Origin: Verrucomicrobiia bacterium
GTDB lineage: Bacteria; Verrucomicrobiota; Verrucomicrobiia; Limisphaerales; UBA11358
Reading direction: 5' to 3'
Assembly: GCA_035776755.1 (NCBI GenBank)
Contig: DASTWS010000030.1
Coordinates: forward strand, 172,150 to 236,149
DNA: 64,000 nucleotides
The translations under genes and the position numbers were made by a program. Below the pieces are notes generated by a model. That model saw nothing but the letters and a program-made list of their open reading frames with translations, was not told the DNA's origin and did not search any database. Within the stretch, counting starts at the first letter, position 1; the number at the start of each line of letters is the position of its first letter. This document shows, one piece after another, positions 4,015-50,251 of this stretch.

Positions 4015-5247
4015 ATGAGAATTTTTATTGCCCCGCTTTTTTCGTCTATTGTCGTTGTTTCGGCATTTGCCCAGGGCAGCCTGACACCGCCGGGCGCGCC
4101 TGCACCGGTGATGAAAACGCTTTCGCAGATCGAGCCGCGCACGCCGATTTCGTCCCTGCCTTACACGATCACGAATCCGGGCTCATATTACGTGACGACA
4201 AACCTCACCGGAATTTCCGGACAAAACGGAGTCACACTCAACGCATCGGATATAACATTGGATTTGAGCGGATTTGAACTGGCCGGCGTTCCGGGCTCGC
4301 TGGCCGGAATCCAGGCTCCGAATGAAGTGACCAATATTTTTATCCACAACGGGACGGTGCGGAATTGGGGCGGCAACGGTTTGGAATTAAATCTGACGCA
4401 TGAATCCAGAGTGGAACATGTTCATGCGCAGCGGAATGGTGGTTTGGGAATCGGGCTGGGCGGCGGCGATCTGGTGGAAAATTGTTCGGCAATTTCCAAT
4501 ACCTTTACCGGCATATCTGCCTTTGGCGTCATCCGCAATTGCGCGGCGATTGGAAATGGATCTGATGGAATCAGCGGGGAAACGTTGCAGTCCTGCATGG
4601 CGGAAGGCAACGGAGGAAATGGCGTTCACAGTTCAATCAGCATCGTGGATTGTTCGGCGGCTTATAATCACCGGGACGGAATTTTGATTGAAAGCGGCGG
4701 TCTCATCAGCCGAAGCGCCGCCCAATTCAACAGTGGCAACGGAATCGAGGCCAGGTTCAGCGACCTGATCCGGGATTGTTCGGCATATAATAACGGGGCC
4801 ACGGGCATCGTTGCGGCCGTTTCGTGCCGGATTGTCAGTTGCGTGATCGAGGGCAACACGATCGGAATTTCCGCGGGCCAGGCCAGCACGGTGAAAGATT
4901 GCACGGTCCGCAACAGCTCCGGGGATGGCATTGTGGTGCCGAATGATTGTGTGGTTCAGGACAATGACTGCGTGGACAACGGCAGCATGGGCGGCGCCGG
5001 CGTCCATGTCACGATTGCTGGCAACCGGATCGAAGGAAACACCACCATCCTGAACTCAAAGGGAATCTGGATAGAAGGCGCCGCGAATATGGTTGTCCGC
5101 AATATTTCACGCTACAACCCGGGCAGCGGTTCTATCGGCAGTTCCAATTTCGTCATCAATGCCGGCAATACTGTCGGGGAAATCCTGAACTTCAGCAGCG
5201 GCGGCACGATCACGAATGCCAATCCGTGGGCAAACTTTTCGTATTAA
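4015..5247 (+). CDS. Secreted parallel beta-helix repeat protein, paralog 3
   Basis: ATG at 4015 lies 3 nt after the paralog-2 stop and gives signal peptide MRIFIAPLFSSIVVVSAFAQG. Same leader (SLTPPGAPAPVMKTLSQIEPRTPISSLP) and C-terminus NPWANFSY. Confidence 0.8.
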   Translation: MRIFIAPLFSSIVVVSAFAQGSLTPPGAPAPVMKTLSQIEPRTPISSLPYTITNPGSYYVTTNLTGISGQNGVTLNASDITLDLSGFELAGVPGSLAGIQAPNEVTNIFIHNGTVRNWGGNGLELNLTHESRVEHVHAQRNGGLGIGLGGGDLVENCSAISNTFTGISAFGVIRNCAAIGNGSDGISGETLQSCMAEGNGGNGVHSSISIVDCSAAYNHRDGILIESGGLISRSAAQFNSGNGIEARFSDLIRDCSAYNNGATGIVAAVSCRIVSCVIEGNTIGISAGQASTVKDCTVRNSSGDGIVVPNDCVVQDNDCVDNGSMGGAGVHVTIAGNRIEGNTTILNSKGIWIEGAANMVVRNISRYNPGSGSIGSSNFVINAGNTVGEILNFSSGGTITNANPWANFSY

Positions 5248-10308: not shown

Positions 10309-11718
10309 ATGCCAATTCCGGTCATCAGTCTTGCGCAAATGCGCGAATGGGAACGCGCCACGTGGAGCAGCGGCCAAACCGAAGCCGAAGTCATCCGTCG
10401 CGTCGGCAAACGCATTGCCCGCCGCATCCGTAAACTCACCCGCGGCAGCGATGCGATTCTCTTCCTCGCCGGAAAAGGAAATAACGGCAACGACGCCCGC
10501 GCCGCCGCCGAATTTCTCGATGACCGGAAAATTGAATTTCTCAACGTTATTTCGCCCGCGACCGATTTACGCCGGCTTGAAGAATTGCTCCGCCAAAAAT
10601 TTGCGCTCATCGTGGACGGCATTTTCGGCATCGGCCTGAACCGGCCGCTGGATGCGCACTGGCAGAAATTTGTTTCCACCATCAACGATTCCCAAATTCC
10701 CGTGCTCGCGATTGATACGCCGTCCGGGTTGAACTGCGAAACCGGTGAACATTTTGGCGCGGCGATTCAAGCCGCAATCACGCTGACCGTCGGCGCGCCG
10801 AAGACCGGATTGCTCGTGCAGGCCGCGTGGCCATTCGTTGGACGGCTTGAAGTGCTGGACGACGTCGGCCTTGTCCCCTGCCCGTTCAAATCCGAACTCA
10901 ATTGGATTTCGCCGGACGATTTCGAAAACTTTCCGCCGCGCCGCGCCGTCGCCGCGCACAAAGGCTCGTTCGGCCACCTCGCCGTCGTCGCCGGCAGTTT
11001 TGGATTTCATGGCGCGAGCGTTTTGGCCACGCGCGGGGCACAACGCGCGCAGCCGGGCTTGATCACTTTGCTCACGCACGAAAACGTTTACGGCGTCGTC
11101 GCGCCGCAATTACACGCGCCGATGGTGAACGTGTGGAAACCAGATCTGGAATTTCCAAAAACGACGAGCGCCATTTTGATCGGACCCGGTTTACATGCGC
11201 CTGGCGTGGCCGATGAAATGAAACCGTTTGCGCAAAAATTGTGGCGCGAATCGGATTTGCCAATTGTCGTGGACGCCAGCGCTTTGGATTGGCTTCCGCC
11301 GGGAGATTTGCCGGCGAATAAAATCCGCGTCATCACGCCGCATCCGGGCGAAGCCGCGCGATTGCTGAATTGTTCGACACCGGAGATTCAGGCCAATCGC
11401 CCAAATGCCGTGCGCGAGATTTCAAAACGTTTTGGCAATTGTTGGGTGATTTTGAAAGGACATCAGACGTTGATCGGCCGAAATGCCGGAGAAATGTTTG
11501 TGAATTCCTCCGGCAATCCGCATTTGGCGCAAGGCGGCAGCGGCGATGTTTTGTCCGGATTGATTGCCGGATTGATTGCGCAACCTCCATTGCAAACGGA
11601 CATCGGCAAAACACTTTGTTACGCCGTTTGGCAACATGGCGCGGCCGCGGATGAATTGCAATCGTCGCGAAAGAATTGGATCATCGAAGATTTGATTGAG
11701 CGGTTGGCAGATTGTTGA
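10309..11718 (+). CDS. nnr: Bifunctional NAD(P)H-hydrate repair enzyme (epimerase/ADP-dependent dehydratase)
   Basis: YjeF-N motif GKGNNGNDA. C-terminal carbohydrate-kinase motif GGSGDVLSGLIAG. Confidence 0.85.
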   Translation: MPIPVISLAQMREWERATWSSGQTEAEVIRRVGKRIARRIRKLTRGSDAILFLAGKGNNGNDARAAAEFLDDRKIEFLNVISPATDLRRLEELLRQKFALIVDGIFGIGLNRPLDAHWQKFVSTINDSQIPVLAIDTPSGLNCETGEHFGAAIQAAITLTVGAPKTGLLVQAAWPFVGRLEVLDDVGLVPCPFKSELNWISPDDFENFPPRRAVAAHKGSFGHLAVVAGSFGFHGASVLATRGAQRAQPGLITLLTHENVYGVVAPQLHAPMVNVWKPDLEFPKTTSAILIGPGLHAPGVADEMKPFAQKLWRESDLPIVVDASALDWLPPGDLPANKIRVITPHPGEAARLLNCSTPEIQANRPNAVREISKRFGNCWVILKGHQTLIGRNAGEMFVNSSGNPHLAQGGSGDVLSGLIAGLIAQPPLQTDIGKTLCYAVWQHGAAADELQSSRKNWIIEDLIERLADC

Positions 11719-11738
11719 AGATAATTTGAGAAAATCGA

Positions 11739-12890
11739 ATGCAAGTTGCCGCGCGACAAGACGAATTATCCGAGCAATTTTGGAAAGCATTCCAAGCGCA
11801 TCGCGAACATCCTGAAATCTCTTCGCGCGCGTATCGAGCAAGACGCCGGTTAACTCTAGGAAAGTCGGTTGCCAAAAAAATTCGGATTTATCTCGATACA
11901 CGTTATTGGATTCACGTCAGAGACGCTCGTCAAGGAAAACCAGAGAAACCTGAACACGAACAGATTTACAAACTTTTGCACCAACTTGTTTTAGATGGAA
12001 AAGTTTTATGTCCTGCAAGTTTTCCAGCATTTGACGAACTTCTGAAACACAAAGATAAGCAAGTGCGTCTCGCTTCTGCTGAAACTTTGGATGAATTGAG
12101 CAACCAGGTTTGCTTAATAAATCACATCGAACTTACCCGCGCCGAAATCATGGGATTATTTCGACGATTCACGCCTAACTATCCACTGCCCGCCCCAATG
12201 CTGGAATGTGTTTGGACCAAAGCTGGTTTTTTTTCTGGAGAAATGGTTCCAACAAACAAAACTATTCCGCCAGATTTTGAGCGGGCATTTCAAAAAGCGT
12301 TTGAAGATCAATGGGCACGACTCGAGTTTTCATATATTGTCGAAGGGTATTTTAAATCCAATCGTGAAGAAAATTCTGAAGATTTTGTCCGACAATTAAA
12401 TGACAGCATTTCAAAATTCAGCGCAACCGCAAAAAGTCAGCGTCAACTTTACAAAGCACAATTTCTATCCTTGTTTCAAGAACACAATGATTTAATAGCG
12501 GATGTTATGCGACAACTCTGCAAAGATATATTTGGAAAAACTTTTGAACAATGCACTGATTTCCTTGAGCCGTTATTTGAGCAAGTGTTACAGCGCGCAT
12601 TCTCGCTTAAAGAGACTGCGTTTGATTTGCCAGGAATCCATATTTGGTCGAGCTTGCTTTCCGCTATTGCTTGGGACAAAAGACATCCCTTTACAGCACA
12701 TGATATACACGACGTTATGCACGCACATTCAGCATTACCATATTACAATTATGTTTTCGTCGAGCGCCGATTTAGTCATTTGATGACTACTCCTCCGAAC
12801 AAGTTGGCAGAAACGTATGGAGCAAAAGTTTGTTGGAAGGAAGCTGATGTGATTAAAGAACTGGAATTATTAAATCGAAAATTAAATTAG
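11739..12890 (+). CDS. Hypothetical protein in an AT-richer segment; weak PIN-like termini
   Basis: 383-aa ORF whose body is visibly AT-richer than its neighbours. IRIYLDTRYW near the N-terminus and HDIHDVMHAHSALPYYNYVFVERRF near the C-terminus loosely resemble PIN first and last strands. No firm family. Confidence 0.5.
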   Translation: MQVAARQDELSEQFWKAFQAHREHPEISSRAYRARRRLTLGKSVAKKIRIYLDTRYWIHVRDARQGKPEKPEHEQIYKLLHQLVLDGKVLCPASFPAFDELLKHKDKQVRLASAETLDELSNQVCLINHIELTRAEIMGLFRRFTPNYPLPAPMLECVWTKAGFFSGEMVPTNKTIPPDFERAFQKAFEDQWARLEFSYIVEGYFKSNREENSEDFVRQLNDSISKFSATAKSQRQLYKAQFLSLFQEHNDLIADVMRQLCKDIFGKTFEQCTDFLEPLFEQVLQRAFSLKETAFDLPGIHIWSSLLSAIAWDKRHPFTAHDIHDVMHAHSALPYYNYVFVERRFSHLMTTPPNKLAETYGAKVCWKEADVIKELELLNRKLN

Positions 12891-15841: not shown

Positions 15842-16171
15842 ATGAAAAATATTCAACGCGAGATATTGCTCGGCTTTTGGAAAGCACACATCCTGCATCA
15901 CGCCGCTGAAGCAAACCTTCATGGGCATTGGATGTTGTCGGAGTTGCGCGGGCACGGCTACGACATCAGTCCCGGCACGCTTTATCCATTGCTTCAACGA
16001 ATGGAAAAGCTCGGCTGGTTGAAGTGCAAGACCGGTGCAAAAGCGGGCGGCCGCACGCGGAAAAATTACCGGTTGACGCCATCCGGAAAAAAAGTGCTCG
16101 AGCTGGTTCGCGGGCAGATCGTCGAACTTTACGAGGAAATCGTGAAGGAAAGGAAACATCGCAAAAAATGA
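15842..16171 (+). CDS. PadR-family transcriptional regulator
   Basis: GYDISPGTLYPLLQRMEKLGWL winged-helix signature. 109 aa. Confidence 0.8.
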   Translation: MKNIQREILLGFWKAHILHHAAEANLHGHWMLSELRGHGYDISPGTLYPLLQRMEKLGWLKCKTGAKAGGRTRKNYRLTPSGKKVLELVRGQIVELYEEIVKERKHRKK

Positions 16172-16656
16172 AAACGTCACTCATCGCTTTGACCGTCACC
16201 CGGGCTCCGCGCGCAACGATATGGGTGCGTTTGCTGGTGGGCGCGGTTTTTTTCGAGGAAGGAATCCAAAAATTTTTATTTCCCGATTTGATGGGCGCTG
16301 GACGTTTCAACCGCATCGGCATCCCTCACCCCGAAATCATGGGACCATTCGTCGGCTCGGTGGAAATCGTTTGCGGCGCGCTGATCCTGATCGGATTGTT
16401 GACACGCCTGGCAGCAATTCCTCTTCTGATCAACATTTCCGTAGCGATTATTTCGACCAAAATTCCCATTCTTTTAGGGCATGACTTTTTGTGTTTTCAT
16501 GTTGCCAAACTGGCGCGCTATGGATTTTGGAGCATGGCGAGCGAAGCGCGAACCGATTTTTCCATGTTGCTCGGGTTGATCTTTCTGACCTGTGTCGGCG
16601 CCGGAAAATGGTCATTCGATGCCTGCTGGAACCGGAAATCCGAAGAAAAAATATGA
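16168..16656 (+). CDS. DoxX-family membrane protein
   Basis: The ATG at 16168 overlaps the PadR stop (ATGA). Sequence WVRLLVGAVFFEEGIQKF...VEIVCGALILIGLLTRLAAIPLL. Confidence 0.75.
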   Translation: MKTSLIALTVTRAPRATIWVRLLVGAVFFEEGIQKFLFPDLMGAGRFNRIGIPHPEIMGPFVGSVEIVCGALILIGLLTRLAAIPLLINISVAIISTKIPILLGHDFLCFHVAKLARYGFWSMASEARTDFSMLLGLIFLTCVGAGKWSFDACWNRKSEEKI

Positions 16657-48544: not shown

Positions 48545-48575
48545 CAAAAAACCGCCGCAAACAAATTGCGGATAA
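48545..48575 (-). terminator. Orphan intrinsic-terminator-like hairpin (minus strand)
   Basis: Minus strand reads CCGCAA-tttgt-TTGCGG (48555-48571), then cgg, then TTTTTT (48546-48551). No gene lies upstream on that strand. Confidence 0.4.
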
Positions 48576-48721
48576 CGCAAAAACCATTGTCAAATCAATG
48601 CAAATCGCGTTTTTTGTTACAAACTATTCACAATAAATTTCAGCGAAAAACGGCGGTGGTGAACAAGTCTATGTGTAAAGTTTTGGAAAAATTTCGAAAT
48701 AAATTTTTTAGCGAAACAAAT

Positions 48722-48930
48722 TTGAAAAATCCCGAAGGGATTTAATCAATCAGCCCGGCGTTGGCCGATTGAAAAATCGGACTACGCCGGGCAATTGACA
48801 AAATGTTATTCAACCCTGACAGGGTTGAATCGTTTGCCGACGGATTCCCAGCGTAGCCGCTCCTCGCCTGTCCGGCTCGGACCGTCAACGCCGGGCTGGA
48901 TGATTTGAATCCCGTTGGGATTCACAAATT
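48722..48930. repeat. Symmetric palindromic element of about 200 nt (MITE-like or structured RNA)
   Basis: Imperfect terminal inverted repeats of about 40 nt, each containing an AATCCC-N3-GGGATT hairpin (48727-48743; 48908-48922). 13-bp perfect long-range complement CAGCCCGGCGTTG (48751-48763) / CAACGCCGGGCTG (48886-48898). Internal hairpins at 48754-48791 and 48807-48829. Confidence 0.5.
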
Positions 48931-49015
48931 GCGCTCGACAGGAAAATTTTTGAGAGCAGAATTTGTTCGGGTTTGATGAAAATATTTTTCTCTATCTGCG
49001 TTCTACTGCATTGCG

Positions 49016-49468
49016 TTGCTGCTTTGCCTTCCATCAGGACGTTTTAATGTTCATTGCGAACTGTTGAGCGGTGAAAGCGGAACGGCCAATGAAAAACTTT
49101 TAAGAGCCATCGGTGATATTTTTAAAGTGAATATCAAGATAGAAGATAAACACTTGTGGAATGGTTACCGGGTAACAGCTCCAAATCCATTACCAGAATG
49201 TTTCAAAATTTCAAAAGCTTCCGGCGGTGATGTGCAAATGCATGGAATTGGCGATTATGAAGGTTATCATTTGGATGATATACTATCTCATGCACTCTAT
49301 GATAAGCCTTTCGAGTTATCTTCCATAAATAATACGCAGCGATATGACTTGAAGTTGCAAGTTTGGCCTGAAGCCTATGGAGAAATGACGGCACTGCAAC
49401 AATTAGGTTTTGATATTGTTCGAGCCAAGATTCCAGAAAAGACTTTGGTGATTAATCCTCGCAAATAA
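49016..49468 (+). CDS. Hypothetical protein (AT-rich); start ambiguous, possibly frameshifted
   Basis: ORF has no in-frame ATG near its 5' end. An ATG at 48976 lies one base out of frame across an A4 run. Both frames encode a hydrophobic signal-like N-terminus. Confidence 0.45.
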   Translation: MLLCLPSGRFNVHCELLSGESGTANEKLLRAIGDIFKVNIKIEDKHLWNGYRVTAPNPLPECFKISKASGGDVQMHGIGDYEGYHLDDILSHALYDKPFELSSINNTQRYDLKLQVWPEAYGEMTALQQLGFDIVRAKIPEKTLVINPRK

Positions 49469-49470
49469 TT

Positions 49471-50055
49471 TTGAAACGCCACCTTCCATTCGCGCTCACC
49501 ACCTTGCGCCTGTTGCTCGGCCCAATCGCCCTGCTCTGCGCGTTCGCAAACGTTCCGCGCTGGATTTATTTTCCCATTCTTGTCACCGCAACGCTCTCGG
49601 ACATTTTCGACGGCATTCTCGCGCGTAAATTCGGCGTCGCCACGCCGGCGCTGCGCCGTTACGACAGCATAACGGACGTGATTTATTATCTGTTCATCCT
49701 CGCTGCGGCATGGGTTCTATGCAAACCCGTCATCACGAAAAACCTTTTGCTCATCGCGTTGATTCTTGTTTCCGAATTTGCCGTCGTTCTCGTTTGTTTT
49801 CTTAAATTCAAAAAATATCCGGCCACGCATTCGTATCTGGCAAAATTTTATGGCATTTGCCTCCTCGCCGCGCTCACGGCATTGCTCGTCTTCAACGCCG
49901 GCAATTGGGCGATCATCTCCCTGACGGCCATTGCGCTCGCGGCCAACCTGGAAATCATCGCCATCCATTTGCTGATGAATTTGCCGCCGGTGGACGTGAA
50001 GTCGGTTTTTGCTTTGCCAAAATCAAAGCAATCGCGGGACATAAATCCGTTCTAA
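49471..50055 (+). CDS. CDP-alcohol phosphatidyltransferase family protein
   Basis: DIFDGILARKFG...DSITDV matches DG(x)2AR...G(x)3D(x)3D. Multi-TM. TTG start 3 nt after the upstream stop. Confidence 0.75.
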   Translation: MKRHLPFALTTLRLLLGPIALLCAFANVPRWIYFPILVTATLSDIFDGILARKFGVATPALRRYDSITDVIYYLFILAAAWVLCKPVITKNLLLIALILVSEFAVVLVCFLKFKKYPATHSYLAKFYGICLLAALTALLVFNAGNWAIISLTAIALAANLEIIAIHLLMNLPPVDVKSVFALPKSKQSRDINPF

Positions 50056-50085
50056 TTGATCGTTAAGCCGGCCATGTCGGCTGCT

Positions 50086-50119
50086 ACAAAAAATAAAGCC
50101 GCCCGATTTGGGCGGCTTT
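50086..50119 (-). terminator. Intrinsic terminator after the small basic-protein gene
   Basis: AAAGCCGCCC-gattt-GGGCGGCTTT at 50095-50119. On the minus strand it is followed by ATTTTTTG. Confidence 0.75.
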
Positions 50120-50137
50120 GACTTGAGAAAAATTCCG

Positions 50138-50251
50138 TTAGGCGGCAGCGGGAGCGGCCGTTTTGCGCTTGGCTTTCACGGCCACTTTCTTTCGCTTGAG
50201 GTAACTCGCGCGACGTTTTCTTTTCAAGACTTTGTTGTATTGTTTGCCCAT
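50138..50251 (-). CDS. Small highly basic protein (37 aa)
   Basis: MGKQYNKVLKRKRRASYLKRKKVAVKAKRKTAAPAAA. ATG at 50251. Strong terminator immediately downstream. Confidence 0.5.
   Translation of the reverse strand: MGKQYNKVLKRKRRASYLKRKKVAVKAKRKTAAPAAA

Follow-up and report, generated by a model that had tools for sequence, protein, structure and literature searches.

A gene-less palindrome near the MISL RNA of a Verrucomicrobiia contig as a probable REPIN-like miniature of an IS200-like element

The DNA analysed here is a 64-kb window (64,000 nt) of the Verrucomicrobiia contig DASTWS010000030.1, and the feature in question is a 197-nt palindrome at 48727-48923, which consists of two inverted arms of approximately 100 nt and contains no gene. 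On one side, approximately 300 nt away, lies the 5′ end of a MISL RNA (RF03079; 47661-48424, minus strand, 559.6 bits), the only match in the window at the Rfam gathering score besides transfer RNAs (tRNAs); on the other side, the element ends 53 nt upstream of an ATG in front of an orphan open reading frame (ORF). In many relatives the order is Rho-CysK-MISL followed, after approximately 370-480 nt, by a SecDF_P1-like gene and an M23 peptidase gene. At the position between MISL and the SecDF_P1-like gene the window holds 1.68 kb (48551-50231), comprising an AT-rich spacer (GC 0.31-0.45), the element, the orphan ORF and a CDP-OH_P_transf (CDP-alcohol phosphatidyltransferase) gene. A previous sequence-only reading had described a palindrome of approximately 200 nt at 48722-48930 and had proposed either a repeat resembling a miniature inverted-repeat transposable element (MITE) or a structured leader RNA. 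Comparison with relatives makes it highly probable that the element derives, as a non-autonomous miniature, from a hairpin-ended element of the IS200 insertion sequence (IS) type, widespread in Verrucomicrobiae/Limisphaerales. It is REPIN-like, and is neither a classical MITE with terminal inverted repeats and target-site duplications nor a riboregulator.

Each arm comprises a tip hairpin (H1), a conserved linker and a composite hairpin (P2), in this order from the outside, and a central hairpin (H3) is common to both arms (Table 1). The sequence features quoted in the sequence-only reading, i.e., the tip hairpins, a 13-mer pair, a two-tier hairpin and a 10-bp hairpin, were all located where it had placed them, and the right-arm counterpart of the two-tier hairpin (P2′) had been missed. 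The tip motif AATCCC-N3-GGGATT has only two matches in the 64 kb (48728-48742 and 48908-48922), with none expected and none in 100 shuffled sequences. The 13-nt sequence CAGCCCGGCGTTG is found without mismatch at 48751-48763 (plus strand) and at 48886-48898 (minus strand), and a 10-11-bp stem of H3, which is terminator-like on the minus strand, was recovered by a repeat finder at 48808-48830. The left P2 folds as DNA with -20.2 kcal/mol (z = -7.0) and reads on the opposite strand ...GGCGTAG-(hairpin)-CAACGCC..., with GTAG adjoining the inner hairpin. P2′ is best paired on the minus strand, with one G.T pair, and the plus strand alone gives z = 0.0 against shuffles; its inner insert is longer, as in four other loci (L032, L021, L033, L034). 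Overall, the RNA fold of a 221-nt stretch reaches -104.7 kcal/mol (z = -9.0) on the plus strand and -112 kcal/mol (z = -10.3) on the minus strand, and the DNA folds of the left and right arms have z scores of -10.2 and -5.9 against shuffles. The ends were set at 48727 and 48923 because sequence conservation in the family described below has its limits precisely at the tip hairpins, each taken with one flanking pair that covaries. The complementarity that reaches out to 48719/48930 is peculiar to the window copy.

Table 1. Parts of the palindromic element and its flank repeat in the 64-kb window (parts on the minus strand are given in minus-strand reading)
Feature	Position	Strand	Description
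Whole element	48727..48923	.	Gene-less palindromic doublet; central hairpin common to both arms
H1, left tip hairpin	48727..48743	+	A-AATCCC-GAA-GGGATT-T; stem 7 bp, loop 3 nt; DNA fold -4.4 kcal/mol
Left linker AATCAATCA	48744..48752	+	Conserved, unpaired; columns nearly invariant in the 53-arm alignment A1
P2, left composite hairpin	48753..48792	+	GCCCGGCGT / T.T mismatch / CCGATT-GAAA-AATCGG / ACGCCGGGC
A-rich spacer, P2 to H3	48793..48806	+	14 nt before H3; 41% A vs 27% A in arms overall
H3, central palindromic hairpin	48807..48830	.	ATTCAACCCTG-A-CAGGGTTGAAT; z = -5.0; common to both arms
P2′, right composite hairpin	48847..48895	-	CCCGGCGTTG-ACGGTCCGAGCCGGACAGGCGAGGAGCGG-CTACGCTGGG; 118-nt arm folds with P2′ stem, z = -5.9
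Right linker AAATCATCCAG	48896..48906	-	
H1′, right tip hairpin	48907..48923	-	G-AATCCC-GTT-GGGATT-C; -4.7 kcal/mol
Flank repeat ACAAATT	48716..48722	+	Second copy at 48924-48930; outside the family consensus

The element belongs to a dispersed family. A scan with the arm pattern GGGATT-N(1-2)-AATCA-NN-CAGCCCGGCG (22 specified bases; one genome per GTDB species) returned 48 loci in approximately 39 assemblies, where approximately 0.1 would be expected by chance, almost entirely from metagenome-assembled genomes (MAGs) of Verrucomicrobiae/Limisphaerales; CAWCRR01, DASXED01, CAVPTH01 and DASZXH01 hold 2-4 loci each under this strict pattern. A covariance model (R1), built on 53 arms (alignment A1), confirmed 87 arms within the 48 loci; L027 and L028, which matched the scan pattern and not the model, were left out as partial or chance matches. 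The two window arms score 95.2 and 81.4 bits, and the element is a single copy within the window in a blastn-short search and in a filter-free search with the model, which found these two arms only. That the palindrome is a chance product without homologues, for which its single copy in the window might speak, can be dismissed in view of the homologous loci, the fold z scores of -9 to -10 and the absence of two tip hairpins from all shuffles. The conserved unit of approximately 100 nt comprises H1 with one variable closing pair, the linker (consensus AATCAYTCA, next to the G with which P2 opens), P2 with its outer stem GCCCGGCGT/ACGCCGGGC, a conserved T.T mismatch and an inner hairpin variable in sequence and length, an A-rich spacer, and H3 (CAACCCT-GAAA-GGGTTG). 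At most loci two such units stand head to head and make up a palindromic doublet of 210-235 nt, with an H1 hairpin marking either end exactly. In these relatives H3 and its mirror image H3′ are separate hairpins; in two short forms, the window copy (195 nt between H1 ends) and L030 (176 nt), they are a single fused hairpin. The source of L030 is a relative with genes 80-86% identical to those of the window; its element is of the same short subtype and 81.5% identical, and it sits 22 nt past an lpxB-like ORF, a context unlike that in the window. Gene-less doublets like the window copy number 31, and all are intergenic, in convergent (9), tandem (13) or divergent (5) gene settings or at contig ends (4), many of them 4-90 nt downstream of a stop codon. 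Conservation drops just outside AATCCC from 1.4-2.0 bits to at most 0.2 bits per position, and the flanks differ between copies, with no relatedness seen. Accordingly, the element is a repeat dispersed in verrucomicrobial genomes and not an RNA switch confined to the window locus. Contigs L016, L019, L026, L022 and L033, binned as Bifidobacteriaceae or Saccharimonadales MAGs, also carry the verrucomicrobial element; L033 shares its flanks and 97.8% identity with L021 (Verrucomicrobiia), and the five are probably mis-binned contigs.

At seven independent loci (L038, L002, L004, L025, L032, L050/L052 and L056/L057), the arms flank a gene for a Y1 transposase of the HUH type, and no DDE enzyme was found in any of these full-length members. 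The full-length element of approximately 680 bp consists of a left arm, the gene for a 151-aa protein and a right arm, which repeats the left as its reverse complement. The L038 left arm lies at 4266-4362, the ORF at 4393-4848 and the right arm at 4848-4946; the right arm (H3′, T-rich tract, P2′, linker′, H1′) begins in the base right after the stop codon. The sequence ATG TCC CAA TCC CTC GCA AAA ... comes next after the unit in L001, L038 and L032. The L038-type protein matches Pfam PF01797 (Y1_Tnp) with E = 3.5e-21 and exceeds the cutoff of the NCBIfam IS200/IS605 transposase model (59.5 bits; cutoff 55); it does not reach that of REP_Tyr_transpos (NF047646), the equivalog model for RAYT proteins (18.2 bits; cutoff 80). 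The proteins between the arms in L002, L004, L025 and L032 are 75-82% identical. A protein search yielded at least 7861 clusters at E <= 1e-20, and two of its proteins, P0018 (L050/L052) and P0049 (L056/L057), are arm-flanked too, with identical copies of each mapping to a single locus across samples. An alignment of six proteins shows the shared motifs DHVH, WQ and YIA[TG]Q[EA]EHH and a conserved C-terminal tail. The nearest PDB relatives are IS200-type TnpA proteins (2F4F, 2A6M and 2VHG; Sulfolobus, ISHp608 and ISDra2), which match weakly (E = 0.03-0.6); at E <= 1 the PDB matches do not include the structure of E. coli TnpA-REP. L001 is an internally deleted copy of 357 nt, in which only the first approximately 12 and the last 33 codons remain; it directly links the full element with the gene-less doublets as an intermediate form. 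Genome CAWCRR01 holds three versions, namely the full copy, an adjacent truncated copy with the right arm kept, and this deleted copy elsewhere (L001 4481-4837 and L038 3727-4190), the last 33 codons of the deleted copy being 97% identical to those of the full copy. These versions are evidence that the whole element, its gene included, has been moved or duplicated. Separately, L048 encodes at 1636-2082 a second Y1 transposase (34% identical; motif YIENQQRHH), which lies 1.8 kb from a doublet, has no adjacent R1-type arms and may represent a different subfamily with its own ends. Retrons, integron attC sites and IS110 bridge RNAs had been raised as candidates on account of the palindromic shape and were dropped when the Y1 transposase partner was found.

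The hairpins themselves are conserved. In the consensus structure of 23 pairs on the 53-arm alignment, 96.0% of the cells are paired, compared with 86.7% in shuffles, and two-sided changes occur in 12 of the 23 pairs. The covariation score is 0.267, compared with 0.105 in shuffles, none of 500 of which reaches the observed value, and slid controls stay at or below 0.056. The outermost, closing pair of H1 is GC in 17, AU in 13, CG in 13 and UA in 4 arms; in P2, pairs 35-97 and 37-95 covary, the latter being CG in 34 and GC in 16 arms. Local pairing within P2 (363/378; 96%) outdoes pairing from arm to arm (291/378; 77%), and the two arms of a doublet usually carry different P2 stems, e.g., CCCGGCG/CGCCGGG and CCCAGGG/CCCTGGG. 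The local hairpins are hence the conserved state, and the perfect 13-bp long-range complement emphasized in the sequence-only reading, which is present, is a peculiarity of the window copy. Likewise, of the competition proposed between a local hairpin and the long-range stem, both partners exist, whereas only the local form is the rule in the family.

These data bear directly on the possibility that the element is a classical MITE, i.e., a deletion derivative of an IS with a DDE transposase, moved by cut-and-paste through terminal inverted repeats of approximately 40 bp and leaving target-site duplications. Its ends are indeed inverted repeats, and the window copy is flanked by the 7-nt direct repeat ACAAATT. 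The two repeat copies are, however, offset unequally from the element ends, by 5 nt and 1 nt, and overlap a local palindrome, so that they are probably a chance repeat or part of that palindrome rather than a target-site duplication; the window copy is also the only one of the 31 elements with a direct flank repeat of at least 6 nt. The longest direct flank repeat averages 3.5 nt over these elements, compared with 3.4 nt in mismatched-flank controls, which gives no family-wide target-site duplication. Furthermore, the full-length members encode Y1 HUH enzymes, and arms that differ in sequence while each stays self-complementary fit recognition of hairpins and not of a duplex of terminal inverted repeats. 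A classical MITE is therefore extremely unlikely. From the earlier proposal, the non-autonomous transposable element stands, in that full-length members of a multi-copy family carry a transposase between their arms, and the arms are inverted copies of each other; the target-site duplications, the DDE-type partner and the terminal duplex of a classical MITE are missing, three local hairpins per arm being what is conserved. ERIC, Correia and RUP elements are likewise imperfect palindromes of 100-200 nt, scattered in intergenic DNA and able to fold in transcripts; these families are linked to transposition of the DDE type and target-site duplications, or to no enzyme so far known. The window element was likened to them by description only, and no sequence similarity was seen, none having been looked for.

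A structured RNA acting through competing stems, whether as a 5′ leader or riboregulator that serves the orphan gene or as a domain upstream of MISL or a regulator of it, would account for the very stable fold predicted on both strands, for the covarying helices, for the position of the element between MISL and the ATG and for a sub-threshold resemblance of the arms to the Rfam small RNA (sRNA) candidate Acido-Lenti-1. Covariation, however, is unable to tell RNA hairpins from hairpins in single-stranded DNA. At other loci the family element adjoins unrelated genes in every orientation, and at seven of them its arms flank the transposase gene. A metagenome scan with the MISL 5′ end gave 69 loci, and no arm is present in 42 MISL loci of otherwise conserved synteny. 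A search of the window and 18 element loci at the Rfam gathering score returned MISL and tRNAs only, with no match for the element and no MISL in the 18 element loci; a permissive scan added microRNA-like noise and the sub-threshold Acido-Lenti-1 matches. A link to MISL was rejected on these counts (42 MISL loci without arms, 18 element loci without MISL), and because the spacer is also shorter in relatives, whose homology to the window extends to approximately 48550 and then ends, the element is regarded as part of a lineage-specific insertion zone and not as a MISL accessory. Finally, weak promoter-like consensus matches lie between the element and both neighbours (48518->48491 on the minus strand and 48935-48962 on the plus strand); transcription from these sites would leave the element out, and it may not be transcribed at all. 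A regulatory RNA is accordingly very unlikely, and this half of the sequence-only reading was not upheld.

The derivation from an IS200-like element builds on direct observations, i.e., the family, its autonomous copies, a deletion intermediate, sharp boundaries, lack of target-site duplications, intergenic scatter and compensatory hairpin changes. In the proposed course of events, deletion of the gene from a full-length element would leave a doublet of two inverted arms of 176-235 nt, of which the window copy would be a short form after fusion of H3 and H3′. By analogy with the TnpA proteins of IS608 and ISDra2 and with E. coli TnpA-REP, each arm would fold into its own hairpins on transiently single-stranded DNA; a dimeric Y1 transposase encoded elsewhere in the genome would read the hairpins and the conserved linker, cut at the tips (the hairpin feet) and move or copy the element without target duplication, so that gene-less doublets would be mobilised in trans. 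The copies within one genome are only 82-87% identical, others are kept at orthologous sites across species (L021/L033, 97.8%; L039/L048, 92.6%; L015/L035, 89.7%) and the identical proteins P0018 and P0049 each map to one locus, unlike the several element versions of CAWCRR01; the family therefore resembles long-lived REPIN populations and not a bursting IS.

Several points weigh against this derivation. No Y1 transposase is encoded in the window, and both the multi-copy status and the cognate enzyme of the source genome are taken from relatives. The catalytic mechanism comes solely from analogy, and the element ends are inverted copies of each other, unlike those of characterised IS200/IS605 elements. 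The flanks, at no more than 0.2 bits per position, contain no conserved target or guide tetranucleotide, and the divergence among copies within a genome leaves recent transposition not evident. The exact empty site for the window insertion was not recovered, the contig of the nearest relative (L069) ending 58 nt short of it. The strand counts of G.T versus A.C pairs, 28 versus 8 overall (p = 0.001), are biased by the scan pattern, and in arms outside the pattern selection they are 11 versus 4 (p = 0.12).

The same persistence could reflect a domesticated repeat that serves as a bidirectional terminator or a stabiliser of mRNA ends, as proposed for REP and ERIC sequences, its transposon ancestry being history only. 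Consistent with this are the orthologous-site copies, the age of the copies within genomes, the presence of an identical transposase protein at one locus per population, the many copies shortly past stop codons, with convergent pairs the commonest setting (9/27), and the terminator-like H3 on the minus strand; in addition, at least 5 A occur in the 10 nt before H3 in 24 of 53 arms, i.e., at least 5 T past the hairpin on the other strand. The T-tracts are weak, however, and the window copy lies between features that point away from each other, MISL on the minus and the orphan gene on the plus strand, with no obvious terminator use. Domestication as the whole explanation is unlikely; it adds to the derivation from a transposable element and does not supplant it, and H3 with the T-rich tract as a transcription terminator, or the whole element as an mRNA-end structure, would be a possible secondary effect on the host.

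Among known systems, the closest pattern is that of REPIN sequences and their RAYT transposases (TnpA-REP, "REPtron"), described by Bertels and colleagues (PMC3116915, PMC5581495). As in that system, two inverted hairpin units form doublets, these units also flank a Y1 HUH gene in inverted orientation, the copies are extragenic and scattered without target-site duplication, and duplication is apparently slow, with persistence at orthologous sites (PMC3116915, PMC5581495, PMC6006769). The REPIN motif GT[AG]G stands at the 5′ foot of the hairpin; here, the outward strand of P2 reads CCCGGC-GTAG-(inner hairpin)-CAAC-GCCGGG, and GTAG adjoins the inner hairpin from within the outer stem. In contrast to REP units of 20-40 nt with one hairpin, the present units span approximately 100 nt and hold three; the protein has the IS200-type signature Y---Q--HH and not the class-2 Y---NP, and it scores low against the RAYT model; the host phylum is Verrucomicrobiota; and the gene has been duplicated at least once (L038 and L001, in one genome). 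IS200/IS605 elements and their palindrome-associated derivatives share with the family a Y1 HUH transposase of approximately 150 aa, hairpin ends, the lack of target-site duplication and internal-deletion derivatives. They differ in that the end hairpins of IS608 and ISDra2 lie on one strand, whereas the ends here are mutually inverted, and in that IS608 and ISDra2 insert 3′ of a fixed tetra- or pentanucleotide, whereas no such conserved flank motif was found; no tnpB gene is present here, and the PDB matches are weak. The element thus works like a REPIN or an IS200-derived miniature and falls outside the classical MITE class, the RAYT protein clade and the characterised end geometry of IS200/IS605.

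By motif inspection only, the protein resembles TnpA-Y1 subclass 1.2, with DH[IV]H, WQ, Y---Q--HH, a length of approximately 148 aa and a conserved C-terminal tail (PMC6006769). This subclass was described by Quentin et al. (2018; PMC6006769) as low in copy number, without IS200-type terminal structures, "REP: no", and mostly from Cyanobacteria and Bacteroidetes. By contrast, the genes here are flanked by elaborate inverted arms, which are also dispersed as doublets in Verrucomicrobia; an association of a subclass 1.2-type transposase with repeat arms appears to be undescribed in the literature searched. A Y1 subclass described as repeat-free is now linked to three-hairpin arms and REPIN-like doublets in a new phylum, and the family offers a natural system for studying how HUH enzymes read composite hairpins.

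The resemblance to Acido-Lenti-1 (RF01687) concerns the layout of the arm when read outward. In both, a CC.AGC...GCU.GG hairpin is followed by a 12-nt linker (CUxAxUxAU), next by a 5-bp hairpin whose loop has 3 nt, and then by U. Acido-Lenti-1 is likewise multi-copy in Lentisphaera, of the same PVC superphylum, and its seed alignment holds outward-facing inverted pairs 185-198 nt across, which is the geometry of the doublets (PMC2864571). By contrast, the scores of 16.2 bits (window) and 27.4 and 14.5 bits (L040) fall below the gathering score of 37, P2 here has a large inner hairpin, and H3 lies outside the motif. The seed pairs are at 15912-16096 and 16151-16336 of ABCK01000016.1 and at 530-727 of wf3_AHAI13594_y1 (PMC2864571, supplementary file 183), and seed members also occur in tandem clusters in Lentisphaera araneosa (PMC2864571). 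Members arranged in this way behave like a repeat rather than like one sRNA gene. Weinberg et al. (2010; PMC2864571) proposed a trans-acting sRNA, and no link to a transposase has been reported; the resemblance provides a testable lead to a signal at the DNA level instead. As a tentative extension, which we regard as doubtful, the doublets and their single Y1 gene would be long-lived partners in the manner of REPIN/RAYT, in a system that came out of the IS200-like subclass 1.2 or never left it, and Acido-Lenti-1 would be the tip module of such a DNA element in Lentisphaerae, Acidobacteria and Planctomycetes. If this were true, REPIN-type "replicators within genomes" would extend well beyond Proteobacteria, and an Rfam family would be reclassified as a single-stranded-DNA transposition signal.

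For annotation, the block at 48727-48923 should carry the label of a repeat or mobile-element remnant instead of that of a regulatory RNA belonging to MISL or the orphan gene, as should dozens of similar palindromes between genes in Limisphaerales genomes. The elements probably break metagenome assemblies; many transposase contigs are shorter than 3 kb. The closest MISL-locus relative, L069 (Ga0206887_10206, 11220-12276; 83% identity), has its contig end at the window equivalent of 48669, which is consistent with an assembly break at a repeat.

Additional observations concern the neighbourhood of the element. In approximately 45 metagenome relatives, nucleotide homology runs approximately 125 nt past the Rfam 5′ end of MISL, to approximately 48550, and the promoter-like TTGTCG-16-TATGAT (48518->48491) lies within this conserved block; either the MISL RNA is longer than its model or its promoter is unusually conserved. 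In the orphan ORF (48976-49468, plus strand), homology to P0002 (245 aa; 78% identity) begins at 49027, and P0002 has 99 additional N-terminal residues that are absent from the window; this distant homologue, the only informative one, is on a 1.2-kb contig without synteny. Upstream of the homology, an out-of-frame, signal-peptide-like ORF starts at the ATG at 48976 (MKIFFSICVLLHCVAALPSIRTF*), and the NCBI start of the gene is at 49064 (HEU6449432.1). The N-terminal mismatch could stem from a frameshift, from replacement of the N-terminus or from an error of assembly. Within the AT-rich spacer, to the left of the element, a direct repeat of approximately 22 nt (TTCACAATAAATTTCAGCGAAA / TTCGAAATAAATTTTTTAGCGAAA) occurs at 48627-48648 and 48693-48716, 66 nt apart, with a third partial copy at 48712-48723, and may bind a protein.

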